Of a DNA stretch of 32,000 nt, positions 7,737-32,000 are shown in pieces. Location of the stretch: positions 300,001-332,000 of the forward strand of contig OY970322.1 in assembly GCA_963716945.1 (NCBI GenBank). Direction: 5' to 3'. Source of the stretch: Candidatus Saccharimonadota bacterium. Its GTDB lineage: Bacteria; Patescibacteriota; Saccharimonadia; Saccharimonadales; UBA4665. How positions within the stretch are numbered: position 1 is the first letter of the stretch; each line of letters opens with the position of its first letter. The notes beneath the pieces were generated by a model. The model made no database searches and had not been told where the DNA came from. It saw nothing but the letters and a program-made list of their open reading frames with translations. Both the position numbers and the translations under genes were made by a program.

Positions 7737-7750
7737 CCGTCACGTAGCGC

Positions 7751-11305: not shown

Positions 11306-11383
11306 TTGGGATATATTAAGACGCTCATGCTTGCGTTTTACGCTGAGGTTTATTACAGTCGGTTTAGTCTAAAGAGGTACCGT

Positions 11384-11917: not shown

Positions 11918-12031
11918 CCTCATTGAGCAAACCCGAGCAGCCGCTACCCGGTTGCAAATAGACGGTCTTTGGGGCACTATATTAGCAGCTGAGGCGGCAC
12001 GCCTGAAAATGAAAAACACCGGAGTAAAAGT

Positions 12032-12517: not shown

Positions 12518-12550
12518 GCCGACACGGCTTAACCGGCAGCCGGCTTATTG
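12512..12550. terminator. Bidirectional intrinsic-terminator-like hairpin region between convergent genes
   Basis: A 10-bp perfect inverted repeat, caataagccg (12512-12521) / cggcttattg (12541-12550). Alternative inner hairpins are aagcc-gacac-ggctt and ccgg-cag-ccgg. T-rich runs follow on both strands (cttattgtt; attgttt). Confidence 0.5.
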
Positions 12551-16259: not shown

Positions 16260-19200
16260 GTCACGCACGTTGTCCCCACTAGTGTTGTAGCCGCTCCATT
16301 GAATGTAGTCCACATAACAGTTCTGCGCAGTAGTAGTACTGGTGACACAGGAAGCTTCTGGGCCTAAGTTGTGTGTAGTACCCGGGTCAAAGGTAGTGCT
16401 GGTGTTAAAAGTATTGCCGGTCCCACCAATGCTGTAAACAAAGGTGATGCTGTTAGTCGCATTCACATGAATCTCAACTTCTGCCCAGGTATTAACTGCT
16501 AATGTGGTGGCAGTAGCACAAGTTGACGAGGTGCCGTTACCATAGCAATACTGTAGGTTGCCGCCTGTGTACTGCCACCAGGCGCCGCTGACCGGCGCTG
16601 TAGCACTAGTTTGATTGGTCCAGCCTGCAATCATGGTTCCGGTTGCAGTACTAACGGCAATATTAGACTTAAACACATCCCCCGTGCCAATTACCTCATT
16701 AAGGGTTCCAGCACCGGCACCGGTACCGCCCTCTGTCATAACACAACCGTGGCTGGCGGCTGCGGCGTCTGTGGTCAGTCTAAGCGTGCCAGGATGGTCA
16801 TGGTGAACCCCTGGCCCGACACCACTGGTGTTTTGGTTATAGGATACGGTGCAAGTAGAGCCAGTGCCTGTAAGCTGTGTAACATTCCAGCCTAGAGCAC
16901 CTACACCAACTTGGCTACCTGCACCAGCTGAGCCACCGAGGAATTCGTCTTCGAAATTGTAGGAACTTTCGATTTCGTTGATGCCGCAGGTTTGCCAGAG
17001 GCCGTTGGCACCACAGCGGAAGAGGCCGGCGTCGGCGTCGTAGTACATGGCGCCGTCTTCTTCGGTTGGCTCGCCGTTGCCGCCGGTGACCGGCTGATAG
17101 TTATCCAGGTCTAGGACAATCGGGTTGCTGCCGTGCGGGCTGTTGCCGGCGCCAATAGTGACGTCCGCGCTAGTGGTGGCCAGTTCCTGGTCGCCGCTGG
17201 TGTCTTGGATAGTTACGTTGCCGGAGTTGGCGACGCTGAATAGTGAGTTACCTGAGCTGCCTTGGTCGACGCTGAAGAGGGTGGCTACGCTGTTGCCGGC
17301 GTCGCCTTGGACGTTTAGGGTGCCGCGGGTCGTGTCCAGCCTGATTTCTGGCGAGCCGGCCGAGGAGTCGGTGTAGGCTTGCTGCAGGGTAGGGGTGATG
17401 TTAATCAGGTCGTTCCAGGTCGGGGTGCTGCCTTGGCAACCGCGGAGCGTGTTGGTGCTGGTGTTGTAGACGATGGCACCGGCGGTACAGGTTACGGGGT
17501 CGCCGGCGCTTTGGCCGAACTTGACGACACTCGAACCGCTGACTTGTACGATGCTGGACCCCGAGGTCAGGATGAGGTTGGAACTGGTGCCGCTTTGCAA
17601 AGTTAGCGAACCGGCAGTTGTTTGCCACACCGAGCTGGCGTTAGCTGTCATGGTTATGCTAGCCCCGGTGCCGGCCAAGATGCTGATCGGTCCGCTGCCG
17701 CTACCGACGGCTGTAGTGCCGCTATCAACCGAAATAGTACCGGTTGAGGTGCCGTCGTTGTAGGACAGGCTGATGTAGTGCTGGCTGGCGGTACCATCAA
17801 AGACTTTGAGCTGGTCACCGGCTGTATCGACTGTCAGAACGCTGAGCGAACTGATATTGCGGATGTTCAGGGCGGTAGCGGAGTTGGCCGCGTTCTGGAT
17901 GATTACACCGCCGATTGAACCGGTACCGATGGCGCTCCCGGCCTGGAGGGTAATGTTGCCGCCATTGCTGTTGCCGCCGCTGCCATTGCCATTCCCGGCA
18001 GTAATCGAAACCCCGCCGCCGTTGCCGCCGACTCCGGTACTGCTACCGGCTGCCGCAGTTATGGACACGCCGCCGCCGGCCGACCCGGCCGAAGCTGCCG
18101 CCGCGCCCCCCTGGATAGTAACCGTGCCCCCGGCCCCGGCAGTCGTGCCGCCGGTCCCGGCCGTTCCGCCTTTAAGAGTCAGGGCGCCGCCGCTGCCGCC
18201 GGTCCCGCCGGTACTGGTGACCGCGCCGCCGGTCCCGCCTTGGATAGTTATAGCGCCGCCGGTCCCGGCAACCGTAGCTGCCGCGCCGCTGCCGGTTTCC
18301 GCACCGCCCGTACCGGCCGTGAAGGTAAGGCCGCCGCCTATGCCGCCGGCTGCTGCCGCCGCCGTACTGGCTGTTGCACCGCCGTTGCCAGCCGTGAAGC
18401 TGAAATTGCCACCACTACCGCCGGTATTTGCTCCGCTAGTACCGCTGGCAGCGCCGCCGGCCCCGGTCGTTAATGAGATACCCGAGCCGGTGCCCGCTGT
18501 TTGGCCGGTCGTGCCGCTACTGGCGCCGCCGGCCACACCGGTAACGGATAGGATCGTGGTCGCGTTGGTGCCGTTCCCGGCTACTGAGCCTGGAGCTGTA
18601 CCCTGGATAACAACTTGGCCGTTGGTGCCGGTAGCGCCCGGCGCGCCAAGTGTCAGGTTGATATTGCCGCCGGCCGCGTTGCCTTGACCGGCCCCGGAAG
18701 TGAAGGTCAAAGCGCCGCCGGCCGCATTGCCGGCTGTGCCGGCCCCGGCCGTCAGATTTACGGCCCCGCCGCTGCCAGATGTAGAACCGCCGGCCCCGGC
18801 TTGGAGCGACAGGGTACCGCCTGCGCCGCTCGCTCCGCCGCTGCCGCCCTGAACCGTGAAGTTGCCGCCGGCCCCCGAAGCAGTGCCATTACCAGTAGTG
18901 AGCGTGATGGCGCCGCCGTTAGCAGTACCGTTACCGCCGGCCCCGGCATTGCCGGCCGCCAAGCTTAACGTACCGCCGGCCCCGGCCGTACCGGTCGCAC
19001 TCGTGACATTGCCGCCGGCCCCGCCTTGCAGGGTAAAGGTGCCCCCGGCTCCGCCGACATTCGCGCCGCTGGCTCCGTTAGCCGCACCGCCGGTTCCTGA
19101 AGTTAGCGTGATGACCGAACCGGCCCCTGCTGTCTGGCCAGTCGTACCGGAAGTCGCACCGCCGGCGGCGCCCGCGACCGTAAAGGCGGCGTTAGCCCCG

Positions 19201-22200
19201 GTCCCGTTGCCAGCAACCGAACCCGGCGCCGTGCCGGCAACGGTTACCGATCCTGTTCCGGACTGAAGAGCGATATTACCGCTGGCGTTCTGGATACTAA
19301 TAGCTGTGGCGTTGGCGTTGCCGATGCTGACTTGGCCGGTACTGCTACCGCCGTTAATCGAGGTATTGGAGTTAATGTTGTTGTTGATGTTCACGCCGCT
19401 GAGGCCTTGGATGGTTGTTGTTCCCCCCGTCGCCGACGCTCCCGTACCGATCGTAACGTTAGTCGTCCCGGCCACGTTAGTGTTACCGATGCCGATGGTT
19501 TGGGTATTGCCGGTATTGACTGACGTGGTGCCGATTTGGATCGGTAGGGAACCGACGCTCGTACCGATGTTTATGCCGCCGGTTGAACCGCCCTGGATAC
19601 TGACGGCCGTGTTGGTATTGGTGTTACCGACGTTAACAGTATTGGCGACACTGGAGTTAGTCCCGACCGAGATCGTCCCGCCGCCGCCGGCCTGAATACT
19701 GACCGCCCCCGAACCGGTGCCGCCATTGATGGTCGTCGTACTGGTACTGCCTAAGAGATTGCCGATAGCCACGATGTCGGTCGAGCCGGCAGTGTTGTTA
19801 TTGCCGATACCGATCGTCTGGTTAACGACGTTGCCGGCCGGCCCGTTGCCGATCTGGATAGTATTGCCGCCTATATTGCCGGTGCCGATGTTAATACCGG
19901 CGCCGCCTTGGACATTGACTGTCGTACTGCCGCTGATACTGCCAACGTTGACCGTATTGGCGCTAGTCGTCCCGACGGCGATCGTCCCGCCGCCGCCGGC
20001 CTGAATACTGACCGCCCCCGAACCGGTGCCGCCATTGATGGTCGTCGTACTGCCGCTGTTGGCCGCCGAACCGATGCTGACTACCTGGGCCGTAGTCCCG
20101 TTGCCGGTGTCGGCAATATGGACGGTCGACCCGATAGTCGCCGAACCGACGGCGCCAATGTTGACCGTATTGGCAGTCGTCGTAGCGACATTAACGGTGC
20201 CCGAACTGCCGCCTTGGATGTTAATGGTTGGACTGATTGAATTACCCAAGGCCAGGGTGCCTTGCGATTGGATGGTCGTACTGCCCCCCGTCGCCGACGC
20301 TCCCGTACCGATCGTAACGTTAGTCGTCCCGGCCACGTTAGTGTTACCGATGCCGATGGTTTGGGTATTGCCGGTATTGACTGACGTGGTGCCGATTTGG
20401 ATCGTGTTAGCCACGGCGTTGGCGCCCACGTTAAGCGTACCGCTGGCAGCCGTCTGGAGCGTAAGCGTACCGACCGCCTGAACGGTCGTATTACCGGCTG
20501 TTGCCCCGGTGAAGGCGCCGATGGACACGTTAGTCGTCCCGGCCGCCGTAGTGTTACCGATGCCGATAGTCTGGGTATTGCCGGTATTGGTAGCCGTCGT
20601 ACCAAGCTGGATAGTGTTGGCTACGGCTGTCGTCCCGACGGCGATCGTCCCGCCGCTGCCGGCCTGAATACTGACCGCCCCCGAACCGGTGCCGCCATTG
20701 ATGGTCGTCGTACTGCCGCTGTTGGCCGCCGAACCGATGCTGACTACCTGGGCCGTAGTCCCGTTGCCGGTGTCGGCAATATGGACGGTCGACCCGATAG
20801 TCGCCGAACCGACGGCGCCAATGTTGACCGTATTGGCAGTCGTCGTAGCGACATTAACGGTGCCCGAACTGCCGCCTTGGATGTTAATGGTTGGACTGAT
20901 TGAATTACCCAAGGCCAGGGTGCCTTGCGATTGGATGGTCGTACTGCCCCCCGTCGCCGACGCTCCCGTACCGATCGTAACGTTAGTCGTCCCGGCCACG
21001 TTAGTGTTACCGATGCCGATGGTTTGGGTATTGCCGGTATTGACTGACGTGGTGCCGATTTGGATCGGTAGGGAACCGACGCTCGTACCGATGTTTATGC
21101 CGCCGGTTGAACCGCCCTGGATACTGACGGCCGTGTTGGTATTGGTGTTACCGACGTTAACAGTATTGGCGACACTGGAGTTAGTCCCGACCGAGATCGT
21201 CCCGCCGCCGCCGGCCTGAATACTGACCGCCCCCGAACCGGTGCCGCCATTGATGGTCGTCGTACTGGTACTGCCTAAGAGATTGCCGATAGCCACGATG
21301 TCGGTCGAGCCGGCAGTGTTGTTATTGCCGATACCGATCGTCTGGTTAACGACGTTGCCGGCCGGCCCGTTGCCGATCTGGATAGTATTGCCGCCTATAT
21401 TGCCGGTGCCGATGTTAATACCGGCGCCGCCTTGGACATTGACTGTCGTACTGCCGCTGATACTGCCAACGTTGACCGTATTGGCGCTAGTCGTCCCGAC
21501 GGCGATCGTCCCGCCGCCGCCGGCCTGAATACTGACCGCCCCCGAACCGGTGCCGCCATTGATGGTCGTCGTACTGCCGCTGTTGGCCGCCGAACCGATG
21601 CTGACTACCTGGGCCGTAGTCCCGTTGCCGGTGTCGGCAATATGGACGGTCGACCCGATAGTCGCCGAACCGACGGCGCCAATGTTGACCGTATTGGCAG
21701 TCGTCGTAGCGACATTAACGGTGCCCGAACTGCCGCCTTGGATGTTAATGGTTGGACTGATTGAATTACCCAAGGCCAGGGTGCCTTGCGATTGGATGGT
21801 CGTACTGCCCCCCGTCGCCGACGCTCCCGTACCGATCGTAACGTTAGTCGTCCCGGCCACGTTAGTGTTACCGATGCCGATGGTTTGGGTATTGCCGGTA
21901 TTGACTGACGTGGTGCCGATTTGGATCGTGTTAGCCACGGCGTTGGCGCCCACGTTAAGCGTACCGCTGGCAGCCGTCTGGAGCGTAAGCGTACCGACCG
22001 CCTGAACGGTCGTATTACCGGCTGTTGCCCCGGTGAAGGCGCCGATGGACACGTTAGTCGTCCCGGCCGCCGTAGTGTTACCGATGCCGATAGTCTGGGT
22101 ATTGCCGGTATTGGTAGCCGTCGTACCAAGCTGGATAGTGTTGGCTACGGCTGTCGTCCCGACGGCGATCGTCCCGCCGCTGCCGGCCTGAATACTGACC

Positions 22201-24692
22201 GCCCCCGAACCGGTGCCGCCATTGATGGTCGTCGTACTGCCGCTGTTGGCCGCCGAACCGATGCTGACTACCTGGGCCGTAGTCCCGTTGCCGGTGTCGG
22301 CAATATGGACGGTCGACCCGATAGTCGCCGAACCGACGGCGCCAATGTTGACCGTATTGGCAGTCGTCGTAGCGACATTAACGGTGCCCGAACTGCCGCC
22401 TTGGATGTTAATGGTTGGACTGATTGAATTACCCAAGGCCAGGGTGCCTTGCGATTGGATGGTCGTACTGCCCCCCGTCGCCGACGCTCCCGTACCGATC
22501 GTAACGTTAGTCGTCCCGGCCACGTTAGTGTTACCGATGCCGATGGTTTGGGTATTGCCGGTATTGACTGACGTGGTGCCGATTTGGATCGGTAGGGAAC
22601 CGACGCTCGTACCGATGTTTATGCCGCCGGTTGAACCGCCCTGGATACTGACGGCCGTGTTGGTATTGGTGTTACCGACGTTAACAGTATTGGCGACACT
22701 GGAGTTAGTCCCGACCGAGATCGTCCCGCCGCCGCCGGCCTGAATACTGACCGCCCCCGAACCGGTGCCGCCATTGATGGTCGTCGTACTGGTACTGCCT
22801 AAGAGATTGCCGATAGCCACGATGTCGGTCGAGCCGGCAGTGTTGTTATTGCCGATACCGATCGTCTGGTTAACGACGTTGCCGGCCGGCCCGTTGCCGA
22901 TCTGGATAGTATTGCCGCCTATATTGCCGGTGCCGATGTTAATACCGGCGCCGCCTTGGACATTGACTGTCGTACTGCCGCTGATACTGCCAACGTTGAC
23001 CGTATTGGCGCTAGTCGTCCCGACGGCGATCGTCCCGCCGCCGCCGGCCTGAATACTGACCGCCCCCGAACCGGTGCCGCCATTGATGGTCGTCGTACTG
23101 CCGCTGTTGGCCGCCGAACCGATGCTGACTACCTGGGCCGTAGTCCCGTTGCCGGTGTCGGCAATATGGACGGTCGACCCGATAGTCGCCGAACCGACGG
23201 CGCCAATGTTGACCGTATTGGCAGTCGTCGTAGCGACATTAACGGTGCCCGAACTGCCGCCTTGGATGTTAATGGTTGGACTGATTGAATTACCCAAGGC
23301 CAGGGTGCCTTGCGATTGGATGGTCGTACTGCCCCCCGTCGCCGACGCTCCCGTACCGATCGTAACGTTAGTCGTCCCGGCCACGTTAGTGTTACCGATG
23401 CCGATGGTTTGGGTATTGCCGGTATTGACTGACGTGGTGCCGATTTGGATCGTGTTAGCCACGGCGTTGGCGCCCACGTTAAGCGTACCGCTGGCAGCCG
23501 TCTGGAGCGTAAGCGTACCGACCGCCTGAACGGTCGTATTACCGGCTGTTGCCCCGGTGAAGGCGCCGATGGACACGTTAGTCGTCCCGGCCGCCGTAGT
23601 GTTACCGATGCCGATAGTCTGGGTATTGCCGGTATTGGTAGCCGTCGTACCAAGCTGGATAGTGTTGGCTACGGCTGTCGTCCCGACCGAGACGGTGCCG
23701 CTGGCAGCCGTTTGGATAGAAGTGCTGCTGTTGCTTGATCCGCCGATAGTTATACTGGATGCCGTAGTCGTGCCAATAGAGACAGTGCCATTTGTCCCCG
23801 AACCATTCTTAACCCCGGCATCAATCGTGATATTGCCGCCGTTGCCGTTAGTCCCGCCACCGGCTCCGCCTTGCAGCACCAGGTTGCCGCCGGCCAAAGC
23901 ACTCGCGCCGCTGCCGGCGGCCCCGGCCGATAACGTCAATGAATTCCCGCCGGCCCCCGAGCCGGCCCCCGTCACCGAAATCGTATGGTTGGCATTGTCC
24001 CCGAACGCTATATTGCCGGAGTTGTCGAGCACGAACGCGTCGTTGCCGCCGGACTGCAAGTCCAACAGGTTGCCGGTGCCGGTTTTGTTGATATAAATAC
24101 TGTTCGTGCCGGACGAGGCGTCGGTTTGCAAGCCCTGCGCTATTTGTACGAACTGCGAACTGGACAAGCCGCCCAGCAGGCCGGAGTTAAGCGCGTAGGG
24201 CGCCGAGGTGAACGGCTGCATCGGCGTCATTTCGCCGTCGGGGCTGCACGAAGCGAACGGCGTACACGAAGCGCCCGTGCCGGCGATGTTCATCGACAGC
24301 CACAGGGTGCTCTGGTTCCAGTTGATATTCGAGCCGAACGGTGTAATCGAACCCAGCTCGACCGACAGGTAGCCGTTGACGACCTTGACGCCGTGCCCGG
24401 CGGCGTTGAGGTAATCTTCCGTCCATTTCAGCGAACCGGCCGGCGAACCGGTCGTGTCGCCGACGCTCTGGCCGTCGCCGTCCTGGTAGACCTTGAACTC
24501 GATGTTGTAGTAGCCGTCCGGCACGGTGGCGCCGGCCGAGTTAAGCAGCCGCCCTTGGAAGTTTATTTCCTGGTTGATACCGGTGGCCGCGTGGGCGGGC
24601 TTAGCCGAGAAAAACGAATAAACAAAAAACACGCCTAAAAAGACGCTGCACAGCAGTACCCAACGGCTTATACGGCATAAACCTGTTTTCAT
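16257..24692 (-). CDS. Giant repetitive surface protein (2811 aa), adhesin/fibre-like
   Basis: One uninterrupted 8.4-kb ORF. N-terminal signal/anchor (WVLLCSVFLGVFFVYSFFSAKPAHA). N-terminal globular domain (INFQGRLLNSAGATVPDGYYNIEFKVYQDG...). About 1.4 kaa of xTxxIGxxxxNTGNTQTIGIGNT-type short repeats, beta-helix/beta-roll-like, organised as a 508-aa tandem unit. A Gly-rich GGxGG block (..GAGGNFTVQGGSGGASGAGGTLSLQAGAGG..). Two Cys-bracketed knob motifs, then a C-terminal beta-sandwich (lectin-like) domain. Confidence 0.85.
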   Translation of the reverse strand: MKTGLCRISRWVLLCSVFLGVFFVYSFFSAKPAHAATGINQEINFQGRLLNSAGATVPDGYYNIEFKVYQDGDGQSVGDTTGSPAGSLKWTEDYLNAAGHGVKVVNGYLSVELGSITPFGSNINWNQSTLWLSMNIAGTGASCTPFASCSPDGEMTPMQPFTSAPYALNSGLLGGLSSSQFVQIAQGLQTDASSGTNSIYINKTGTGNLLDLQSGGNDAFVLDNSGNIAFGDNANHTISVTGAGSGAGGNSLTLSAGAAGSGASALAGGNLVLQGGAGGGTNGNGGNITIDAGVKNGSGTNGTVSIGTTTASSITIGGSSNSSTSIQTAASGTVSVGTTAVANTIQLGTTATNTGNTQTIGIGNTTAAGTTNVSIGAFTGATAGNTTVQAVGTLTLQTAASGTLNVGANAVANTIQIGTTSVNTGNTQTIGIGNTNVAGTTNVTIGTGASATGGSTTIQSQGTLALGNSISPTINIQGGSSGTVNVATTTANTVNIGAVGSATIGSTVHIADTGNGTTAQVVSIGSAANSGSTTTINGGTGSGAVSIQAGGGGTIAVGTTSANTVNVGSISGSTTVNVQGGAGINIGTGNIGGNTIQIGNGPAGNVVNQTIGIGNNNTAGSTDIVAIGNLLGSTSTTTINGGTGSGAVSIQAGGGGTISVGTNSSVANTVNVGNTNTNTAVSIQGGSTGGINIGTSVGSLPIQIGTTSVNTGNTQTIGIGNTNVAGTTNVTIGTGASATGGSTTIQSQGTLALGNSISPTINIQGGSSGTVNVATTTANTVNIGAVGSATIGSTVHIADTGNGTTAQVVSIGSAANSGSTTTINGGTGSGAVSIQAGSGGTIAVGTTAVANTIQLGTTATNTGNTQTIGIGNTTAAGTTNVSIGAFTGATAGNTTVQAVGTLTLQTAASGTLNVGANAVANTIQIGTTSVNTGNTQTIGIGNTNVAGTTNVTIGTGASATGGSTTIQSQGTLALGNSISPTINIQGGSSGTVNVATTTANTVNIGAVGSATIGSTVHIADTGNGTTAQVVSIGSAANSGSTTTINGGTGSGAVSIQAGGGGTIAVGTTSANTVNVGSISGSTTVNVQGGAGINIGTGNIGGNTIQIGNGPAGNVVNQTIGIGNNNTAGSTDIVAIGNLLGSTSTTTINGGTGSGAVSIQAGGGGTISVGTNSSVANTVNVGNTNTNTAVSIQGGSTGGINIGTSVGSLPIQIGTTSVNTGNTQTIGIGNTNVAGTTNVTIGTGASATGGSTTIQSQGTLALGNSISPTINIQGGSSGTVNVATTTANTVNIGAVGSATIGSTVHIADTGNGTTAQVVSIGSAANSGSTTTINGGTGSGAVSIQAGSGGTIAVGTTAVANTIQLGTTATNTGNTQTIGIGNTTAAGTTNVSIGAFTGATAGNTTVQAVGTLTLQTAASGTLNVGANAVANTIQIGTTSVNTGNTQTIGIGNTNVAGTTNVTIGTGASATGGSTTIQSQGTLALGNSISPTINIQGGSSGTVNVATTTANTVNIGAVGSATIGSTVHIADTGNGTTAQVVSIGSAANSGSTTTINGGTGSGAVSIQAGGGGTIAVGTTSANTVNVGSISGSTTVNVQGGAGINIGTGNIGGNTIQIGNGPAGNVVNQTIGIGNNNTAGSTDIVAIGNLLGSTSTTTINGGTGSGAVSIQAGGGGTISVGTNSSVANTVNVGNTNTNTAVSIQGGSTGGINIGTSVGSLPIQIGTTSVNTGNTQTIGIGNTNVAGTTNVTIGTGASATGGTTTIQGLSGVNINNNINSNTSINGGSSTGQVSIGNANATAISIQNASGNIALQSGTGSVTVAGTAPGSVAGNGTGANAAFTVAGAAGGATSGTTGQTAGAGSVITLTSGTGGAANGASGANVGGAGGTFTLQGGAGGNVTSATGTAGAGGTLSLAAGNAGAGGNGTANGGAITLTTGNGTASGAGGNFTVQGGSGGASGAGGTLSLQAGAGGSTSGSGGAVNLTAGAGTAGNAAGGALTFTSGAGQGNAAGGNINLTLGAPGATGTNGQVVIQGTAPGSVAGNGTNATTILSVTGVAGGASSGTTGQTAGTGSGISLTTGAGGAASGTSGANTGGSGGNFSFTAGNGGATASTAAAAAGGIGGGLTFTAGTGGAETGSGAAATVAGTGGAITIQGGTGGAVTSTGGTGGSGGALTLKGGTAGTGGTTAGAGGTVTIQGGAAAASAGSAGGGVSITAAAGSSTGVGGNGGGVSITAGNGNGSGGNSNGGNITLQAGSAIGTGSIGGVIIQNAANSATALNIRNISSLSVLTVDTAGDQLKVFDGTASQHYISLSYNDGTSTGTISVDSGTTAVGSGSGPISILAGTGASITMTANASSVWQTTAGSLTLQSGTSSNLILTSGSSIVQVSGSSVVKFGQSAGDPVTCTAGAIVYNTSTNTLRGCQGSTPTWNDLINITPTLQQAYTDSSAGSPEIRLDTTRGTLNVQGDAGNSVATLFSVDQGSSGNSLFSVANSGNVTIQDTSGDQELATTSADVTIGAGNSPHGSNPIVLDLDNYQPVTGGNGEPTEEDGAMYYDADAGLFRCGANGLWQTCGINEIESSYNFEDEFLGGSAGAGSQVGVGALGWNVTQLTGTGSTCTVSYNQNTSGVGPGVHHDHPGTLRLTTDAAAASHGCVMTEGGTGAGAGTLNEVIGTGDVFKSNIAVSTATGTMIAGWTNQTSATAPVSGAWWQYTGGNLQYCYGNGTSSTCATATTLAVNTWAEVEIHVNATNSITFVYSIGGTGNTFNTSTTFDPGTTHNLGPEASCVTSTTTAQNCYVDYIQWSGYNTSGDNVRD
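19423..23687 (-). repeat. Perfect 1524-bp (508-codon) in-frame tandem repeat, about 2.8 copies, inside the giant gene
   Basis: The sequence at x equals the sequence at x+1524 from 19423 until it diverges after 23687. All six-frame ORF translations recur identically at +1524 (19717/21241/22765; 20026/21550/23074; 20689/22213). Within each unit a block of about 0.4 kb occurs twice, at 663/861-bp spacing (for example 20026 vs 20689). Confidence 0.9.
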
Positions 24693-25496: not shown

Positions 25497-26492
25497 CTAA
25501 ACCTGGGCGTGGGGAATAGGCCCGAGCGGCGGGTTCTGGACCGGCACGGCAGCAGCCAAGAGGTGCTTCTCGCGGCGTTCGCCCATCCAGAAGCTGACCA
25601 CCAGGGTAGCGGCGATAGCGTAGAGGGGCCAGAGGACCAGCAGTTTGCTGGTTGCCGGCTTCGAGCCGGCGGTGCCGCCGGCTGTCAGGACGGCACTGGG
25701 CTGACCGTTGACGATGGCGGCGACGGTCAGGAAAGCTACCCGCTGCTGGCTGTCGGTAGCCTGCAGCGTAATCTGGTAGGTGCCGGGCTTCTGGTAGGTG
25801 TGGGAGGCGTTGAAGACGGTGTTGTCGCCGCGGGGAATGACTTGGTTGCTGGAATCACCCCACTCGACATTGACGGCGAACGGCTCGGTGCCGCCGATGA
25901 TAGTGACCGGCACGTTAAGCACCTGGCCGGGAAAAGTGCCGCGGTAAACGGCGTTGGTGTCCAATAGCAGCTGCGTACCGCTGAAGTTCAGCAGGCTGAG
26001 CGGCGCGTTAACCGGCGGCACGGCGTCATAAAACACGTTGACCGTCTTCGACACCGGCCCGGCCTGGTTAAGGTCGTCATAGACCTGGGCGGTGAGGCTG
26101 TTCTCGCCGTATAGCAGGTCTATCTGGAATGAGTAGGTGCCTTTGTTGTCACACACGCCGGAGCCGGCGAAAATGTTGTTCTTGTAGATCTCAACCAGCG
26201 TGCCCGACGGGCAGGTACCGGAGATCGTTATCGGCGAGCTGCTGAAGTGCTGCTGGTCGGCCGGCGAAGTGATGGTGGCGGCTACTTTGGGCGGTACGCC
26301 GGGGACGGTACCGGTCAGGCTGACCGAGTCGGATTGCGGCGGCGGGCTGGCGGCAAAAGTCGAAACGGAGAACATAACCAGTATCAGGCCCACGGCTAAA
26401 ACTAGACACGCCAGGGGGATGTAGGATGTGTGTTCGTGGGGCCGGAGGCGGCCGCTGTGTTTGTGTTGGCTTATTTTTAACGGACCGTACAT
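25497..26492 (-). CDS. Doubly membrane-anchored surface protein (331 aa) with Ig-like and PKD-like domains
   Basis: N-terminal basic His-rich motif KISQHKHSGRLRPHEHTSY followed by a TM segment (IPLACLVLAVGLILVMFSV). Ig-like segment (ITSPADQQHFSSSPITISGTCPSGTLVEIYKNN). PKD signature (VEWGDSSNQ...ASHTYQKPGTYQITLQATDSQ). C-terminal TM segment (LLVLWPLYAIAATLVVSFWM). Confidence 0.75.
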   Translation of the reverse strand: MYGPLKISQHKHSGRLRPHEHTSYIPLACLVLAVGLILVMFSVSTFAASPPPQSDSVSLTGTVPGVPPKVAATITSPADQQHFSSSPITISGTCPSGTLVEIYKNNIFAGSGVCDNKGTYSFQIDLLYGENSLTAQVYDDLNQAGPVSKTVNVFYDAVPPVNAPLSLLNFSGTQLLLDTNAVYRGTFPGQVLNVPVTIIGGTEPFAVNVEWGDSSNQVIPRGDNTVFNASHTYQKPGTYQITLQATDSQQRVAFLTVAAIVNGQPSAVLTAGGTAGSKPATSKLLVLWPLYAIAATLVVSFWMGERREKHLLAAAVPVQNPPLGPIPHAQV

Positions 26493-26568: not shown

Positions 26569-27603
26569 CTATTGCTGCGGGTTCGGGTCTCTAGGCGGCT
26601 GCTGCCGCTTCTGAGCCTGTTCCAGGATGCGGCGGTTGTAGCGGCGGATAGCGTAGCGCAGGATGAAGAAGGCGGCGATCAGCAGGACGATGATGATACC
26701 GATCGTGCGGTAAGGGATAACCCAGAAGACCAGGCTGGCCGTCAGGACTTTCTTGCTGGTGCCGTAGGTAACCTTCAGTTTGGCGGTGTAGCGTCCGAAC
26801 AGTTTCTTGTTGCCGATGACCGTCTTATCAAGCGGTTGGCTGAACTTGCGAATGCTCTGGGGCAGAATGTTTCCGGGGGGGACATTGACGTTGACGGCCC
26901 CCAGTTCTTTGCCGAACATATCGGTTACGGTTACCTGGCCGGTGGGCTGGACGTGGACGTTACCGGTGTTTTTGAAGCGTTCGACGAAGTTGACCGGGCC
27001 GGCCGAGAAGAAGGTACCGGTTTGGCCGTTGTGGTTTACCGAAAACTCCTGCACGTTGAGGTTCTCGGTAATCTTGCCGTTAACGGTCAGCAACACCAGC
27101 GCGCCCAGGCTGGCGGAAAGCGACACGCCGCTGCCTTGGAGCGACGGCGCGGTGGCGGTGAAACGGATAACGCCGTAGTGGCCGCCGGGCGAAGCGTTAG
27201 CCGGAATGTGAAAAGTTACCGGCAGGGTCTTAATCTGTTTGGGAATAAGCTGCAGGGTGGGCAAAGCCGCTACCCAGCCTTTCAGCGAGTAAGGGTCGTT
27301 GTCGTTATTGTTCAAAAGCACTTTTGGCGTACCGGTTTCGCCGTCGGCTACGAAATCGTTGACCTGGCCGGTAACGATCAGGTCGCCGCTGGAAATGTCG
27401 CGGATATAAATCTGGCTGTTTATGGTCTGGCCGGGGTTTACCGTCAGGTAGAGCAGGGGCGGCGCGATTTCGAGCGCCTGGCCGTTGTTGGCAGTGCTGG
27501 AAGGGGATGCCGCCGGGGTGGCTGCGAGAGCCGGGGCGGTCATCTCCAAGCAGAGCGCGATTAAGGAAGCGCCGGTTAGTATGAGTTTAGTAAGTTTCTG
27601 CAT
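26569..27603 (-). CDS. Signal-peptide + two-beta-domain + C-terminal-TM protein, architecture of DUF916/DUF3324 (WxL-interacting protein) family
   Basis: Signal peptide (LILTGASLIALCLEMTAPALAA). The first half reads LEIAPPLLYLTVNPGQTINSQIYIRDISSGDLIVTGQVNDF. The second half reads QVTVTDMFGKELGAVNVNVPPGNILPQSIRKFSQPL...GRYTAKLKVTYG. C-terminal TM anchor with a basic tail (VIPYRTIGIIIVLLIAAFFILRYAIRRYNRR). Only 4 nt separate it from the upstream paralog gene. Confidence 0.7.
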   Translation of the reverse strand: MQKLTKLILTGASLIALCLEMTAPALAATPAASPSSTANNGQALEIAPPLLYLTVNPGQTINSQIYIRDISSGDLIVTGQVNDFVADGETGTPKVLLNNNDNDPYSLKGWVAALPTLQLIPKQIKTLPVTFHIPANASPGGHYGVIRFTATAPSLQGSGVSLSASLGALVLLTVNGKITENLNVQEFSVNHNGQTGTFFSAGPVNFVERFKNTGNVHVQPTGQVTVTDMFGKELGAVNVNVPPGNILPQSIRKFSQPLDKTVIGNKKLFGRYTAKLKVTYGTSKKVLTASLVFWVIPYRTIGIIIVLLIAAFFILRYAIRRYNRRILEQAQKRQQPPRDPNPQQ

Positions 27604-27607: not shown

Positions 27608-28732
27608 TTAGAAAGTAGCCGTACAGATATAAGTTAGGGTGGTGGTGTAGGTTCCGACAGCCTGGGCACCATTCACGTTGACTATATAAGACGTCGTATA
27701 AATTTGCGAGTCGGTCGGTCCGGCACCGCCGTCAGCACTATTGGCTACAGGATCTCCGCTTAGATACTTAAAGGTATCAGCCGTACTGTAACCTGTCAAT
27801 GGCTGACCCTTGTAATTGGTGCCGTTGGCAGCCGGGGTCAGGGCGGTTCCGACGGCCGGTGTCGACGTGGCCGTGGTATTAGGCATAAGGTTGAGCCCGA
27901 ACTGGCTGGTGCCGCGTACACCCACGCCGGCGGTACTCATGGCCGTGACGGTATTGCTGCCGGCGGTCAGCGTCGGCCCGTTAACGGTTATGCTGTAGCC
28001 CGAAGCGGCATTGGTCGAGGCCGACATCTGCGAGGTGGCCGTCGCCGTATCGGATGGCGAGAACAGCTGGTTGAAGTTAATGGCGCCGCTGGTGGCCGTC
28101 GAGCAGTCCGGCACGCCGCCGGTAGTCCCGATGGTGCCGCCGGTACAGAAAATCAATGATTCGGGCATGGTACCGGTCAGCGTGATCTGGTTGGCCGTGC
28201 TGGCGGCTACCGTTCCGGTGTCGGTCGGACTGCCGCTCGTATCGGTCGAGGCAAAGGTGGATATCCGGACGTAGAAGGTCTGGTTCGCCGTAGTCGGGTT
28301 GGTTATGCCGGTCAATTGTTCGGTAACGGTCGTGCCTGCCGTGACCGAGGCTGACGTCCGGGTCAGGTAAGGCGCGCCGTTAGTGGTGTTAACCACGCTA
28401 GTAAAGGTAGCGCCGCTGTGGGTGCCGTAAGCGGCCGACGTAGTAACCAGACCGGTCGGCGTAGTACAGGTTCCGCCGGCCGTCGTACAGTACAAAAATT
28501 GGATTGAGCCCACGTTAGTGTTACCGACCGACGGCAAGGTAAAAGTGAACAAATGGTTAACGACGCCGCCGGGTTTGGACCCGCCGTCACTGACGCCGGC
28601 TTGCAGCGTCAGGCTGCGCGAAGTGATCTGCGCCGCCGCTACTCTCCCCGATGGAAGCAGTGAAAAGACCATTAGACTTAGGCCGCCCATAGCGAGCACA
28701 AGTCGAACCAGCTTCCTTCCACTCCAAGTCAT
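27608..28732 (-). CDS. Secreted Thr/Ser/Gly-rich surface protein, paralog C (374 aa), WxL-like C-terminal strand
   Basis: Signal peptide MTWSGRKLVRLVLAMGGLSLMVFSLLPSGRVAAA|QITSRS. Conserved Cys pairs (LYCTTAGGTC; FCTGG..PDC). Terminal motif VGTYTTTLTYICTATF-COOH. Own promoter at 28739-28768. Confidence 0.8.
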   Translation of the reverse strand: MTWSGRKLVRLVLAMGGLSLMVFSLLPSGRVAAAQITSRSLTLQAGVSDGGSKPGGVVNHLFTFTLPSVGNTNVGSIQFLYCTTAGGTCTTPTGLVTTSAAYGTHSGATFTSVVNTTNGAPYLTRTSASVTAGTTVTEQLTGITNPTTANQTFYVRISTFASTDTSGSPTDTGTVAASTANQITLTGTMPESLIFCTGGTIGTTGGVPDCSTATSGAINFNQLFSPSDTATATSQMSASTNAASGYSITVNGPTLTAGSNTVTAMSTAGVGVRGTSQFGLNLMPNTTATSTPAVGTALTPAANGTNYKGQPLTGYSTADTFKYLSGDPVANSADGGAGPTDSQIYTTSYIVNVNGAQAVGTYTTTLTYICTATF

Positions 28733-28738
28733 GCCTAA

Positions 28739-28768
28739 ATACTACCATGAGCATTTCATTGCAGTCAA
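28739..28768 (-). promoter_or_regulatory. Sigma70-like promoter (TTGACT-N18-TGgTAGTAT), leaderless start at 28732
   Basis: The minus strand reads TTGACT (28768-28763), an 18-nt spacer, TAGTAT (28744-28739) preceded by TG, then 6 nt (ttaggc) and the ATG. No Shine-Dalgarno. Confidence 0.55.
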
Positions 28769-28811
28769 AAGAACTTATCCCCGTTTTTAAGTTAACAAAC
28801 CGGGCCGGCTG

Positions 28812-29930
28812 CTAGAAGGTCGGCGTACAGATATAAGTCAGGGTAGTGGTGTAGGTTCCGGCAGGCTGGCTACCAGGGACGTTAGCGATGTAGGATACGG
28901 TAAATATCTGGGCGTCGGAGCCGCCAGGGCCGCCATTGGCGCTGTTAGCCACGCTGTCCGTGCTTGTGAACTTAAAGTTGTCGACGGCATTGTAGCCGGT
29001 AATAGCCTGGCCCCTGTAGTTAGTGCCGTTAGCCGCCGGTGCCACCTCGGTTCCGACCGCCGGTGTCGACGTGGCCGTGGTGTTGGCTTTCAGGTTGAGG
29101 CCGAACTGGCTGGTACCGCGGATACCGGTAGTCGAAGTACCCATAGCGACGATGGTGTTGCTACCGGACGTCAGCGTCGGCCCGTTAACGGTTATGTTGT
29201 AGCCCGAACCGGCGTTGGTCGAAGCCGCCATCTGCGAGGTGGCCGTCGCCGTATCGGTAGGCGAGAAGAGCTGGTTGAAGCTGACGGCGCCGCTGGTAGC
29301 CGTCGAGCAGTCCGGCACGCCGCCGGTAGTCCCGACCGTGCCGCCGGCACAGAACACCAGGGACTCGGGCATGGTGCCGCTGACGACTATTTGGGTGGCG
29401 GTACTGGCGGCTACATTACCGGTATCTGTCGCGCTGCCGCTCGTATCGGTCGAGGCAAAGGTGGATATCCGGACGTAGAAGGCTTGGTTCGCCGTAGTCG
29501 GGTTGGTTACCCCCAGCAACTGGTAGCTAAGCGCCGTACCCGAAGAGATACTGGCTGCCGTACGGGTAATGTACGGAGCCCCGTTGGTGGTGTTGACAAT
29601 ACTGAAGCCGGTAGCGCCGCTTTGGGTACCCATGGTAGCCGACGTAGTAACCAGACCGGTCGGCGTAGTACAGGTTCCGGCCGCGGTGGTGCAATAAAGG
29701 AACTGAATCGAGCCGACATTACCGGTACTGCCGGTCGTGAAGTTGAACAAATGGTTAACGACGCCGCCGGGTTTGGACCCGCCGTCACTGACGCCGGCTT
29801 GCAGCGTCAGGCTGCGCGAAGTGATCTGCGCCGCCGCTACTCTCCCCGATGGAAGCAGTGAAAAGACCATTAGACTTAGGCCGCCCATAGCGAGCACAAG
29901 TCGAACCAGCTTCCTTCCACTCCAAGTCAT
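28812..29930 (-). CDS. Secreted Thr/Ser/Gly-rich surface protein, paralog B (372 aa), a mosaic of paralogs C and A
   Basis: The first 62 aa and the upstream promoter are identical to paralog C. The remainder is identical to paralog A except for a central patch that contains a 49-bp tract identical to C. It ends AGTYTTTLTYICTPTF-COOH. Confidence 0.8.
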   Translation of the reverse strand: MTWSGRKLVRLVLAMGGLSLMVFSLLPSGRVAAAQITSRSLTLQAGVSDGGSKPGGVVNHLFNFTTGSTGNVGSIQFLYCTTAAGTCTTPTGLVTTSATMGTQSGATGFSIVNTTNGAPYITRTAASISSGTALSYQLLGVTNPTTANQAFYVRISTFASTDTSGSATDTGNVAASTATQIVVSGTMPESLVFCAGGTVGTTGGVPDCSTATSGAVSFNQLFSPTDTATATSQMAASTNAGSGYNITVNGPTLTSGSNTIVAMGTSTTGIRGTSQFGLNLKANTTATSTPAVGTEVAPAANGTNYRGQAITGYNAVDNFKFTSTDSVANSANGGPGGSDAQIFTVSYIANVPGSQPAGTYTTTLTYICTPTF

Positions 29931-29936
29931 GCCTAA

Positions 29937-29966
29937 ATACTACCATGAGCATTTCATTGCAGTCAA
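29937..29966 (-). promoter_or_regulatory. Second copy of the TTGACT-N18-TGgTAGTAT leaderless promoter (start at 29930)
   Basis: Identical sequence to 28739-28768, displaced by 1198 bp. Confidence 0.55.
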
Positions 29967-30009
29967 AAGAACTTATCCCCGTTTTTAAGTTAACAAACCG
30001 GGCCGGCTG

Positions 30010-31149
30010 CTAGAAGGTCGGCGTACAGATATAAGTCAGGGTAGTGGTGTAGGTTCCGGCAGGCTGGCTACCAGGGACGTTAGCGATGTAGGATACGGTA
30101 AATATCTGGGCGTCGGAGCCGCCAGGGCCGCCATTGGCGCTGTTAGCCACGCTGTCCGTGCTTGTGAACTTAAAGTTGTCGACGGCATTGTAGCCGGTAA
30201 TAGCCTGGCCCCTGTAGTTAGTGCCGTTAGCCGCCGGTGCCACCTCGGTTCCGACCGCCGGTGTCGACGTGGCCGTGGTGTTGGCTTTCAGGTTGAGGCC
30301 GAACTGGCTGGTACCGCGGATACCGGTAGTCGAAGTACCCATAGCGACGATGGTGTTGCTACCGGACGTCAGCGTCGGCCCGTTAACGGTTATGTTGTAG
30401 CCCGAACCGGCGTTGGTCGAAGCCGCCATCTGCGAGGTGGCCGTCGCCGTATCGGTAGGCGAGAAGAGCTGGTTGAAGCTGACGGCGCCGCTGGTAGCCG
30501 TCGAGCAGTCCGGCACGCCGCCGGTAGTCCCGACCGTGCCGCCGGCACAGAACACCAGGGACTCGGGCATGGTGCCGGTCAGCGTGATCTGAGAAGCCGT
30601 GCTGGCAGCCACGTTGCCGGTGTCGGTCGCGCTGCCCGTGGTGTCGGTAGAAGCGAAAGTCGAGAGGCGCACATAGAAAGTCTGGTTCGCCGTAGTCGGG
30701 TTGGTTACCCCCAGCAACTGGTAGCTAAGCGCCGTACCCGAAGAGATACTGGCTGCCGTACGGGTAATGTACGGAGCCCCGTTGGTGGTGTTGACAATAC
30801 TGAAGCCGGTAGCGCCGCTTTGGGTACCCATGGTAGCCGACGTAGTAACCAGACCGGTCGGCGTAGTACAGGTTCCGGCCGCGGTGGTGCAATAAAGGAA
30901 CTGAATCGAGCCGACATTACCGGTACTGCCGGTCGTGAAGTTGAACAAATGGTTAACGACGCCACCGGGCTGCGAACCGCCATCCGTAACGCCCGCCTCA
31001 AGGGTCAGGCTGCGGCTGGTAATCTGCGAGGCAGAGACGCTGGCCGGTATAGAGGAGAGAGTTCCTACTACTAGACCTGCCACAAATAGTACAGCTATGA
31101 GGAATGATAATTTAGATTTTTGGAACATTTTTGTTTTTAGTTTATCCAC
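30010..31149 (-). CDS. Secreted Thr/Ser/Gly-rich surface protein, paralog A (379 aa)
   Basis: Its signal peptide differs from B and C (KLSFLIAVLFVAGLVVGTLSSIPASVSA|SQITSRS). The longest ORF starts at GTG 31147-31149, with an alternative ATG at 31126-31128 (MFQKSK). The mature part is near-identical to paralog B. Confidence 0.8.
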   Translation of the reverse strand: MDKLKTKMFQKSKLSFLIAVLFVAGLVVGTLSSIPASVSASQITSRSLTLEAGVTDGGSQPGGVVNHLFNFTTGSTGNVGSIQFLYCTTAAGTCTTPTGLVTTSATMGTQSGATGFSIVNTTNGAPYITRTAASISSGTALSYQLLGVTNPTTANQTFYVRLSTFASTDTTGSATDTGNVAASTASQITLTGTMPESLVFCAGGTVGTTGGVPDCSTATSGAVSFNQLFSPTDTATATSQMAASTNAGSGYNITVNGPTLTSGSNTIVAMGTSTTGIRGTSQFGLNLKANTTATSTPAVGTEVAPAANGTNYRGQAITGYNAVDNFKFTSTDSVANSANGGPGGSDAQIFTVSYIANVPGSQPAGTYTTTLTYICTPTF

Positions 31150-31219: not shown

Positions 31220-31942
31220 TTAATAAGTACCGGTACACAATATCGTCTGGCCGCCGGTATAGTTACCGCCCGGCGTCAGGCTGCTGACGTTGACTATATA
31301 ACTTATGGTGTAGGTGGTCTGGCCGGAGCTTTTGGGGGCCGTAGCGATGGTGTCGCCGCTGTTGAACTGGTAGCTATTGGAGGTGTTGTAGCCAGCGGCC
31401 GCCGAGCCCGTGCCGAACTGGCCGTGGTCGGGGTTAAAGCCCAGCGAAGTCGGCAGCGTATTGGCTACCAGGTTGATGCCGAACTGTTCGACACCTGTCT
31501 GGGAGGGCGCGGCCGAGGCAATGCCGGAGATAACGTGCGCCCCGTTCGTCGGCGGGTTGCCAAAAATCTGGACGACGTAGCCGTAGCTGGTATAGTCGAG
31601 CACCTGGAAGCTCGAGGTCGCGGTCGCCGTGGTGCTTGGCGAGAAGTCGCCGAAGCTGACATTGGAAGAGTTAACGGCGAAGGCCAGCGCCGGGTCGCTG
31701 GTGGTGGTGTTGCCGGCATTGATCTGGAAGCTGGCCGAAGCCGAGTTCCCAATACCCAGGATGCCGGCCGAAGTCGAGGCTTGGTAGTCGGGCGACTGGG
31801 TATCGAGGATACTGTTGCCGCCGAGGGCGCTTTCTTCGAACTGGTAGTTGGTCGACTTAAGGGTATCGGCAAAAGCGGCCGACGCGGTGACCGCGACGGT
31901 GCAGACCACGACCACGGACAAACATAACCTCGGCTTCACCAT
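31220..31942 (-). CDS. Short paralog D (about 240 aa) of the same secreted family, first gene of the locus
   Basis: Preferred start is ATG 31940-31942 (MVKPRLCLSVVVVCTVAVTASAAFA|DTLKS, a good signal peptide). The ORF is open to 31990. It ends GGNYTGGQTILCTGTY-COOH, the same terminal pattern as A/B/C. A CAATAT -10-like box lies 6 nt upstream of the ATG. Confidence 0.7.
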   Translation of the reverse strand: MVKPRLCLSVVVVCTVAVTASAAFADTLKSTNYQFEESALGGNSILDTQSPDYQASTSAGILGIGNSASASFQINAGNTTTSDPALAFAVNSSNVSFGDFSPSTTATATSSFQVLDYTSYGYVVQIFGNPPTNGAHVISGIASAAPSQTGVEQFGINLVANTLPTSLGFNPDHGQFGTGSAAAGYNTSNSYQFNSGDTIATAPKSSGQTTYTISYIVNVSSLTPGGNYTGGQTILCTGTY

Positions 31943-32000
31943 ATCTTTATATTGTTGCTGAACCGGGGGTATTTTGCAAACCGCTAACACTTGGTCATGG

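Follow-up and report, generated by a model that had tools for sequence, protein, structure and literature searches.

In Neisseria, the pilin paralogs pilE and pilS undergo RecA-dependent gene conversion in which short conserved stretches bound the tracts; the pilS donors are silent, promoterless and 5'-truncated, and transfer is unidirectional and diversifying. The duplicated tufA/tufB genes and the rRNA operons evolve in concert: gene conversion holds the copies to one sequence over long tracts, and the DNA on either side drifts apart. In the lpl cluster of S. aureus (Tsuru & Kobayashi, 2008; PMC2568036), recombination uses a conserved stretch inside each ORF, and the 5' and 3' portions of an ORF have incongruent phylogenies. 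[quoted passage not shown] The Pam pilus, first described in a 2026 preprint (Troman et al., bioRxiv; 10.64898/2026.03.03.709456), is specific to the CPR and is assembled by donor-strand exchange. Its operon in Candidatus Mycosynbacter amalyticus encodes PamA (55 kDa), PamB and PamE as distinct proteins, and the terms paralog, duplicat-, recombin- and gene conversion do not occur in the text of the preprint (10.64898/2026.03.03.709456).

The stretch of 32,000 nucleotides analysed here (the window) carries three adjacent minus-strand genes, A, B and C, that encode Pam pilins, the shaft subunits of family NCBIfam NF058581, and together they are the pilin section of a canonical Pam pilus operon of the Saccharimonadales (Saccharibacteria/CPR). 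The gene order is PamT, pilins, membrane-anchored chaperone and PamR, and the same order (T-pilins-chaperone-R) was found in the related loci examined. The block opens with pamT (31220-31990, minus strand), a single-domain tip pilin that matches NF058579 (CPR_pilus_PamT) at 272.8 bits (cutoff 240), and pamR (25497-26492, minus strand), an RbmA-like pilus anchor/terminator, matches NF058578 at 336.5 bits (cutoff 300); by these NCBIfam profiles, PamT and PamR are both encoded beside the pilins. The present window stops at pamT; in L163, the closest relative, the ATP synthase operon is found immediately upstream of that gene.

The remaining gene of the block (26569-27603, minus strand) has no match in NCBIfam or Pfam sequence searches, and its assignment as a PamC/PamD-like, membrane-anchored pilus chaperone comes from its AF2 fold and Foldseek. 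[quoted passage not shown] The best structural match is WxLIP (E 2e-10), from the WxL clusters of Firmicutes (DUF916-DUF3324-TM; PMC10599100; PDB 9i1y, 9i25), which follow the same logic of a single-domain protein, larger proteins with the same domain at their C-terminus and a strand-inserting Ig-Ig-TM partner. Pfam sequence searches gave no match to WxL, DUF916 or DUF3324 here, and WxL proteins have been described as binding peptidoglycan rather than forming filaments (PMC10599100).

The Mycosynbacter pam operon draws on the same protein families as this locus (PamT, PamR and the C-terminal domain of Pam pilins). [quoted passage not shown] ATP synthase genes in the neighbourhood, another trait of pam operons, are seen at the L163 locus. 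The Mycosynbacter operon differs in its pilins: those of the window, at about 38 kDa, fall in the size class of PamB and stand as a tandem three between pamT and the chaperone.

Pilin A (30010-31128, minus strand; 143.8 bits to NF058581, CPR_Pam_pilin_C, cutoff 55) is a two-domain protein of 372 aa counted from the ATG at 31128; its ORF spans 30010-31149 from a GTG at 31149, but homologs and the database gene call (P0121, beginning MFQKSK) start at the ATG. Its 5' end and central segment group with the first genes of relatives, for example L082_1, and we refer to it as first-type. Pilin C (27608-28732, minus strand; 374 aa; 134.8 bits, cutoff 55) adjoins the chaperone gene and is last-type: its C-terminal domain clusters with the last genes of other loci in segment trees. 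Between them lies pilin B (28812-29930, minus strand; 372 aa), identical in protein sequence to database entry P0001 of a 1,099,440-bp NCBI/ENA contig. Exact matches and site patterns identify B as a hybrid middle gene: its promoter, signal peptide and first 28 mature residues are C-type, its body is A-type, and its patch is B-specific. Residues 185-372 of B are identical to A and comprise the NF058581 C-terminal acceptor domain. In the AF2 model of B, a helix (residues 5-24) is followed by nine strands within residues 37-176 (block-mean pLDDT mostly >80), in agreement with the nine-strand N-terminal domain described for Pam pilins (10.64898/2026.03.03.709456). The C-terminal domain is modelled at low confidence (pLDDT <30), which might be expected of a fold that lacks its donor strand; the protein sequence of linker and C-terminal domain is strongly conserved across the family. 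A promoter-like site (TTGACT-18-TAGTAT with TG; 29937-29966, minus strand), whose -10 element ends 6 nt upstream of the ATG, precedes B, an identical one precedes C (28739-28768, minus strand), and the site is kept upstream of B/C-type genes in L081, L082, L083 and L163.

An exact-match scan bears out the 834-bp perfect direct repeat with a 1198-bp period that had been proposed from the sequence. [quoted passage not shown] The identity of B with C thus takes in the promoter-like site, the 79-bp intergenic region and 187 coding bases, about 62 codons, just as the sequence-only reading had claimed for the promoter, 5' end and signal peptide (first 62 aa). Its claim that most of the mature region of B equals A at 100% also stands, since in addition to the 3' 568 bp a 281-bp tract of B (29485-29765; N-terminal domain, codons about 56-148) is an exact match to A at 30683-30963, again at offset 1198. 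The region as a whole (1220 bp) is a tandem repeat of 2.02 copies whose only imperfection is one central patch, and inside that patch the 49-bp tract already pointed out (29434-29482) is indeed identical to C at 28230-28278 (offset 1204). The switch in B from C-type to A-type falls in a stretch common to all three genes, at 30942-30963 in A, 29744-29765 in B and 28546-28567 in C (offset 2396 to A), which encodes GVVNHLF; this shared junction had been noticed before, but it is 22 bp long, one base more than the 21 bp given.

The mosaic is equally plain in the A/B/C alignment, in which the 343 informative sites fall, in order, into 101 with B=C, 71 with B=A, the mixed patch and 131 with B=A. These sites form 8 runs where 153 are expected (z = -17), and the longest run is 131 sites, whereas 2000 permutations gave no run above 26. 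Of the three breakpoints, two fall within sequence identical in A, B and C, over 22 and 25 bp respectively. Synonymous divergence (pS) is 0 within the perfect tracts and 0.26-0.96 elsewhere in the same genes. No cause of the mosaic is reasonable other than recombination between the tandem paralogs, by gene conversion and unequal crossing-over. On this source the sequence-only reading was right.

B is not simply A plus C, however. The patch (29380-29484, minus strand) covers codons 149-184, which by alignment and AF2 correspond to strands 8-9 of the N-terminal domain (residues 150-158 and 169-176) and the start of the inter-domain linker; its position relative to the donor strand is a tentative placement, since the C-terminal domain is modelled at such low pLDDT. 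Its counterpart in A (30578-30682, minus strand) is A-type (...VRLSTFASTDTTGSA...QITLTG) and resembles L082_1 in amino acids. The two differ at 36 of 105 bases (pS 0.96, pN 0.11), including 27 of 28 synonymous sites. Within the patch, 20 sites of B are C-type, 4 are A-type, 14 are unique to B and at 2 all three genes differ; the 14 B-unique sites imply that part of B derives from neither present neighbour, so of the earlier description of B as a patchwork of A and C the mosaic holds but the two-donor composition does not. The amino-acid signature of the patch, NQA...QIVVSG, is common only to B and to L081_1 (P0003), a gene on a JGI soil contig, and among 304 pilins and 122 database matches no further sequence combines the two motifs.

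Comparison of the locus across genomes, which had been suggested as a check, showed 2 to 4 pilins among relatives. Two pilins are encoded by 86 of 96 non-redundant complete related loci, three by 9 and four by 1. The closest relatives, L163 and L164 (chaperone 87% identical), have PamT-A-C without B, as does L082, whereas L083 has at least three pilins. Thirteen loci have at least three pilins, and in every one the first 20 codons of the middle gene are nearer to the last gene (53-100%) than to the first (22-45%), and its body matches the first gene. On the 2.3-kb contig L081, which does not show the first gene of its locus, L081_1 joins an A-type body to a promoter and signal peptide of C-type, carries the B signature and is followed by a C ortholog; it differs from B at pS about 0.5. 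From other contigs of the same species, a search yielded one 4.5-kb Logan contig and no more, and a collection of 15 billion proteins contained no alternative recombinant proteins.

In segment trees the clades formed by 5' ends are incongruent with those formed by C-terminal domains, and 14 of 156 same-locus pilin pairs share exact tracts longer than 59 bp, the maximum among 600 different-locus pairs. Smaller versions of the same junction-centred tracts are present in L089 and L084. Because same-locus paralogs share longer exact tracts than these controls, gene conversion is common in the Pam pilin family, and the present window is the extreme case of this family-wide sharing. Several features of the lpl cluster have counterparts here, namely conserved internal breakpoints, incongruent 5' and 3' phylogenies (in segment trees and the 13-locus identity profiles), a unit built like the 834-bp repeat and a copy number that varies among genomes. 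The lpl genes belong to another protein family in another phylum, and the lpl evidence (PMC2568036) comes from many strains of one species; ours comes from one genome and relatives at species level and beyond, the differences in pilin blocks being seen among related species, with no second strain of this species found. Unlike tufA/tufB and the rRNA operons, which are dispersed and of a single type, the pilin genes are in tandem, are of two ancient types and have formed hybrids.

On balance we lean towards the view that B is an old hybrid lineage later homogenised with its neighbours by very recent recombination, and we infer the following order and direction of events. The ancestral block would have held two pilins, first-type (A) and last-type (C), and unequal crossing-over between the types in a conserved stretch near codon 60 would have created a middle gene in which a last-type promoter, signal peptide and N-terminus were joined to a first-type body; the architecture of B is the product expected from such an exchange. 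The 105-bp patch would then be a B-specific remnant probably older than the present genome, nearly all else of B having been overwritten by very recent RecA-type non-allelic recombination (gene conversion in a register offset by one unit). Such conversion would have left the 834-bp tract (3' part, intergenic region and 5' part of the next gene) and the 281-bp tract with zero differences, and it would have stopped where the copies, at the A-type 5' end and the patch, were too diverged to pair. B probably predates the perfect tracts, which would represent recent homogenisation, because the patch signature recurs in the B-type gene of a relative at about 50% synonymous divergence, and B is probably not a fresh patchwork of present-day A and C. 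Against this account, the zero differences in all three tracts are explained more economically by one fresh 1198-bp duplication, and the signature is shared at the amino-acid level only, its nucleotides being saturated and B not grouping with L081_1 in segment trees. The short L081 contig, too, leaves the gene at the head of its pilin block out of view.

Such a duplication is a credible but clearly less probable origin. The lineage would until lately have had A and C, and B would have arisen in one event, when the 1198-bp unit (28546-29743 and 29744-30941) was doubled through slippage or an unequal crossover at the 22-bp identity. In a second event, 105 bp in A or B would have been replaced from another allele, possibly that of a strain with a B-type gene and for example by natural transformation; Saccharibacteria are reported to have natural competence (PMC10187176). 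Two events suffice, the near-perfect 2.02-copy repeat is what they would leave, and L163/L164 and L082 are in exactly the required two-gene state. However, the B-unique sites agree with neither A nor C, which leaves the patch without a donor in the window, and the 27 synonymous differences require import from a deeply diverged allele. In L081, moreover, a B-type gene with the same signature is already resident beside a C ortholog.

We regard it as very unlikely that the array is an assembly artefact in which a repeat loop was passed through twice, or variants from different strains were strung together by the assembler, the true genome having two pilin genes. Short reads hardly resolve an 834-bp perfect repeat, and an independent Logan assembly (k=31) of ERR11523672 does not span the array, breaking at window position 28124 in a 37-bp repeat common to A, B and C; a search for a second assembly of the array found none. 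But the repeat units differ by the 36 substitutions of the patch, which double traversal would not produce, and the identity at the B/C-to-A junction extends over no more than 22 bp, less than the k-mer sizes typical of modern assemblers. The array also sits on a 1.10-Mb contig, which we estimate to be about as long as a complete Saccharibacteria genome, and a hybrid middle gene occurs in 12 other independently assembled loci, as does a B-type gene in L081.

Slightly less probable still is a dedicated system of antigenic or phase variation, a programmed diversity generator like Neisseria pilE/pilS or Mycoplasma MgPa, with recombination deciding which pilin variant is expressed. Pam pili are abundant, exposed host-contact filaments of Saccharibacteria (10.64898/2026.03.03.709456), and the earlier suggestion of a surface structure was sound; recombination among the copies is frequent on evolutionary time scales, and a variable patch persists between otherwise identical proteins. 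The analogy with surface-antigen variation fails, however, on the copies and on the direction of change. As in Neisseria, pilin genes have been altered by conversion between paralogs with short conserved bounds, but each of the three ORFs is complete, with its own start codon and signal peptide, B and C have a promoter-like site, all appear from their sequences to be expressed, and the observed recombination erases differences rather than creating them. The window contains no silent or truncated pilin cassettes, Pfam detected no recombinase or invertase in ten other large ORFs of it, and the only inverted repeats are four weak ones (20-24 nt, 75-79% complementarity), with no significant ones flanking the genes. 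Finally, identity maintained by purifying selection after an old duplication, with no recombination, would accord with the conserved protein sequence of linker and C-terminal domain but is contradicted by pS = 0 over 834 and 281 bp, intergenic region included, whereas these codons diverge at pS 0.5-0.6 in comparisons of orthologs and of A with C, and we dismiss it.

The net outcome is a pair of shaft pilins, A and B, that are 97% identical (10 residue differences in the mature proteins) and lie under different predicted promoter/signal-peptide modules. It is conceivable, though we would not expect it, that the units exchanged by recombination are functional modules (promoter, signal peptide and N-terminus; N-terminal-domain surface; the stretch beside the linker or donor strand; C-terminal groove) and that pilins otherwise identical are held apart in the 105-bp patch by selection. 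If so, the patch would tune subunit succession in the filament, or its exposed surface, and crossing-over and conversion in the pam block would be a routine means of re-programming pilus composition and host contact in episymbiotic CPR. Neighbour recombination in tandem pilin genes is real, yet it is an ordinary route for surface-protein gene evolution, and its mechanism is a textbook one, homologous recombination between non-allelic copies of a tandem array. Nothing has so far been reported on the evolution of Pam pilin genes. The long perfect repeats of this operon will break or collapse short-read assemblies, and therefore pilin counts in MAGs are likely underestimates. Across this locus and about 160 related loci there are two ancient pilin types, extra copies are always hybrids and neighbours exchange sequence, from which it follows that pilin copy number and make-up are evolutionarily labile, and this bears on host range and on the interpretation of pilin 'types' in metagenomes.

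The window carries a canonical pam block on the minus strand, comprising pamT, three pilin genes, a chaperone gene and pamR, as established by family matches of the pilins, PamT and PamR and by a structural model of the chaperone. The pilin genes A (30010-31149), B (28812-29930) and C (27608-28732) lie head to tail as ORFs of 372-379 aa. Homologs and a public gene call (P0121, MFQKSK...) place the start of A at the ATG at 31128 rather than at the GTG at 31149, so that A and B are both 372 aa long, with starts offset by exactly 1198 bp. A and C match the NCBIfam family NF058581, 'Pam pilus system pilin subunit', with 144 and 135 bits, respectively (cutoff 55 bits), and the NCBIfam matches of PamT (31220-31990, the next gene upstream in transcription order) and PamR (25497-26492) reach 273 bits against a cutoff of 240 and 336 bits against 300. 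Pfam gave no match for the pilins, PamT or the chaperone beyond a sub-threshold match of LapA_dom to A, and a sequence search of the PDB gave none. The close homologs all come from Saccharimonadales MAGs, and B has an identical counterpart among the proteins encoded on an NCBI/ENA contig of 1,099,440 bp.

The pilin, PamT and PamR families originate from a 2026 preprint on a CPR-specific pilus, in which two filaments of Ca. Mycosynbacter amalyticus were solved (10.64898/2026.03.03.709456), and the gene content of the block in the window is that of this system. [quoted passage not shown] The AlphaFold2 model of B is confident in the N-terminal domain, where residues 37-176 contain exactly nine strands, and has a C-terminal domain with pLDDT below 30, such that the donor strand is not directly locatable from the model; this low confidence might be expected for a fold without its donor strand. 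Foldseek searches with the pilin model returned only generic Ig-like matches (BslA, adhesin domains; E around 4e-4).

The gene between C and pamR (26569-27603, minus strand) has no family match, and its product is modelled (pLDDT 80) as two beta-sandwich domains followed by a C-terminal membrane helix. Its foremost structural match in Foldseek is WxLIP of Enterococcus faecium (DUF916-DUF3324-TM; PDB 9i1y/9i25; E 2e-10), which outranks the chaperone-usher chaperones CfaA, CsuC, Caf1M and FimC. The pam layout also parallels that of Firmicute WxL clusters: PamT consists of one domain, larger proteins have this domain at their C-terminus, and an Ig-Ig-TM protein is the partner. Homology to WxLIP has no Pfam sequence match in its favour, and WxL is not mentioned in the Pam preprint.

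Downstream of pamR lies a giant ORF of 2811 aa (16257-24692, minus strand) with no Pfam or NCBIfam match, which may be the 'tail fibre-like protein' that adjoins pam operons (10.64898/2026.03.03.709456). At roughly 19400-24000 it includes a near-perfect tandem array (99-100%) of about three 1524-bp units, a second recombination-prone or assembly-sensitive repeat of this neighbourhood. We also note two cell-wall genes near the operon, encoding a YkuD L,D-transpeptidase with a peptidoglycan-binding domain (7751-9046, minus strand) and an M14 carboxypeptidase with a Big_5 domain (9023-11305, plus strand), and several large ORFs without a Pfam family at positions 233-15148.

Within the pilin array, an exact-match scan confirmed each of the repeats listed in the sequence-only reading. 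The segment 28546-29379 is identical to 29744-30577 (834 bp) and 29485-29765 to 30683-30963 (281 bp), both at an offset of 1198, and 28230-28278 is identical to 29434-29482 (49 bp) at an offset of 1204. Because 28546-28567 matches A too, at an offset of 2396, the junction common to the three genes, correctly described as identical in all of them, is 22 bp long and not 21 bp. The region 28546-30963 amounts to 2.02 copies of a 1198-bp unit whose sole imperfection is a 105-bp patch (29380-29484 versus 30578-30682); Tandem Repeats Finder reported nothing, this period being above its 500-bp limit. The 343 informative sites in an alignment of A, B and C fall, in order, into 101 at which B equals C, 71 at which B equals A, the mixed patch, and 131 at which B equals A, giving 8 runs where 153 are expected and a longest run of 131 where 2000 permutations reached at most 26. 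The mosaic is real and far beyond chance, and two of its three breakpoints lie within stretches identical in all three genes (22 bp and 25 bp), which is where recombination junctions are expected to land.

B had been described as a patchwork of A and C, and the patch sets a limit to that description, since its 20 C-type and 4 A-type sites are accompanied by 14 that are unique to B and 2 where all three genes differ, so that B is not wholly derived from its present neighbours. Between A and B, the patch has 36 substitutions in 105 bp; 27.3 of its 28 synonymous sites differ (synonymous divergence, pS, 0.96), while non-synonymous divergence (pN) is only 0.11. The near-saturated pS marks the A and B patches as deeply diverged alleles, and a nucleotide tree of the patch is uninformative because its sites are saturated. 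This pS, from a small sample, tops all other comparisons made, including A versus C (0.66) and those between species. The patch spans strands 8-9 of the N-terminal domain and residues 177-184, which include QITLT in A and QIVVS in B, and lies just upstream of the nearly invariant segment GTMPESLVFC, which is probably the donated linker; mature A and B differ at 10 residues, 3 in the N-terminal strand and 7 in the patch.

For comparison, the operon genes were located in each of about 160 related loci fetched from genomic and metagenomic data; when both were scanned with B, no locus of the same species turned up, the best matches having 85% and 80% amino-acid identity. Of the 96 non-redundant loci in which one contig carries both pamT and the chaperone gene, 86 have two pilins, nine have three and one has four, and three-gene loci are interspersed among two-gene loci. 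Segment trees resolve two ancient lineages, first-type (A-like, after pamT) and last-type (C-like, beside the chaperone), whose 5' ends with the signal peptide, and likewise C-terminal domains, are distinct. In all 13 loci with at least three pilins, the first 20 codons of the middle gene are like those of the last gene (53-100% nucleotide identity, versus 22-45% for the first gene) and its body resembles the first gene. Such a hybrid is the expected product of misaligned recombination, in which two-gene blocks pairing out of register and recombining inside genes would join the 5' part of pilin 2 to the 3' part of pilin 1 and duplicate the intergenic promoter. In one group of loci (L002/L009/L099), first and middle genes pair more closely within a locus than with the genes at the same positions in the other species, and the last genes cluster across species, a grouping that points to concerted evolution or repeated duplication. 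Exact tracts are longer in same-locus paralogs than in different-locus pairs of similar overall identity, with 14 of 156 same-locus pairs above 59 bp, the maximum among 600 different-locus controls. Among the Pam pilin loci compared, the window shows this general behaviour in its most extreme form.

An independent three-pilin locus (L089 4789-8337; JGI Ga0265327_10000833) has a smaller-scale, junction-centred pattern, genes 2 and 3 being identical over 168 bp at the promoter and 5' end and genes 1 and 2 over 138 bp at the 3' end. In a further locus (L084 18-2323; JGI Ga0210384_10092182), two adjacent pilins share a 155-bp tract, with pS = 0 over the first 62 codons and about 0.5 elsewhere, and have also been homogenised over a stretch midway through the C-terminal domain; the contig ends 17 bp upstream, a repeat being the probable place of the cut.

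The gene conversion and unequal crossing-over proposed in the sequence-only reading are borne out by pS, which is 0 inside the tracts and 0.26-0.73 elsewhere in the same genes, and by the family-wide occurrence of hybrid middle genes, but B is probably not a fresh patchwork. A 2.3-kb JGI contig (L081, sample 3300078580) carries a gene whose promoter and signal peptide are C-type, with 82% identity to the C ortholog that follows it, and which has an A-type body and both amino-acid motifs that mark the patch of B, NQA and QIVVSG. Among 304 pilins of the fetched loci and 122 database matches, no other combines the two motifs; about half of the synonymous sites differ between this gene and B. The L081 gene favours an origin, on balance a probable one, in which B would be a hybrid paralog of long standing and the neighbouring genes would recently have overwritten its flanks. 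Overwriting in a register offset by one unit would produce the 834-bp tract (3' end, intergenic region, next 5' end) and the 281-bp tract, and the patch may have been spared as too divergent to pair or as under selection.

In the main alternative, possible if rather unlikely, a 1198-bp unit would have been freshly duplicated in an A-C ancestor and a B-type patch imported afterwards. Fewer events are needed, and the two-gene state of the nearest relatives agrees with it: L093, which is the same as L163/L164 (chaperone 87% identical), has A-type and C-type genes only, as does L082, while L083 has at least three pilins. However, it requires a patch donor, which is absent from the window. Both origins, taken jointly with related variants, are forms of non-allelic homologous recombination, which we consider highly probable. 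Six hypothetical recombinants (A 5' end with B patch, C 5' end with A patch, A 5' end with C body, and others) are absent from a collection of 15 billion proteins, which is weak evidence, since one genome alone represents the species.

That the array is an assembly artefact is very improbable: the two units differ by the 36 substitutions of their patches, only 22 bp of identity underlie the B-specific junction, in length the contig is close to our estimate for a complete Saccharibacteria genome, and the same architecture occurs in a dozen independent assemblies. An independent Logan assembly (k=31, run ERR11523672) reproduces 28124-23658 exactly and stops inside a 37-bp repeat common to A, B and C, and thus neither confirms nor contradicts the array. 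Conservation of the identical stretches by selection alone is contradicted by the absence of synonymous divergence within them. A programmed variation device or switch was rejected, as no silent cassettes, significant inverted repeats or, in the ORFs scanned, recombinase were found.

B and C are preceded by promoter-like sites (29931-29966 and 28733-28768, minus strand) of the form TTGACT-N18-(TG)gTAGTAT, in which 6 nt separate the end of the -10 element from the ATG; the site is kept in L081 (1-41), L082 (1249-1328) and L163 (8798-8878), and its position suggests that B/C-type transcripts are leaderless. The A-type upstream region differs and is conserved, with TTGACA-N18-TACGCT, a leader of ~35 nt and no obvious Shine-Dalgarno sequence. 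From the near identity of mature A and B and their different upstream elements, we infer that the array encodes a nearly identical shaft pilin a second time and drives it in a different way.

In mechanism, the nearest precedent is the lpl cluster of S. aureus, where recombination runs through a conserved region within every ORF and the unit that is conserved comprises a 3' part, the intergenic region and the next 5' part (PMC2568036); every lpl feature testable at the A/B/C array is found there. The terms paralog, duplicat-, recombin- and gene conversion are absent from the text of the Pam preprint (10.64898/2026.03.03.709456). The array represents a known evolutionary process, unsurprising in principle, in a newly described pilus, and its value lies in the caveats it holds for assembly and in the understanding of Pam diversity.
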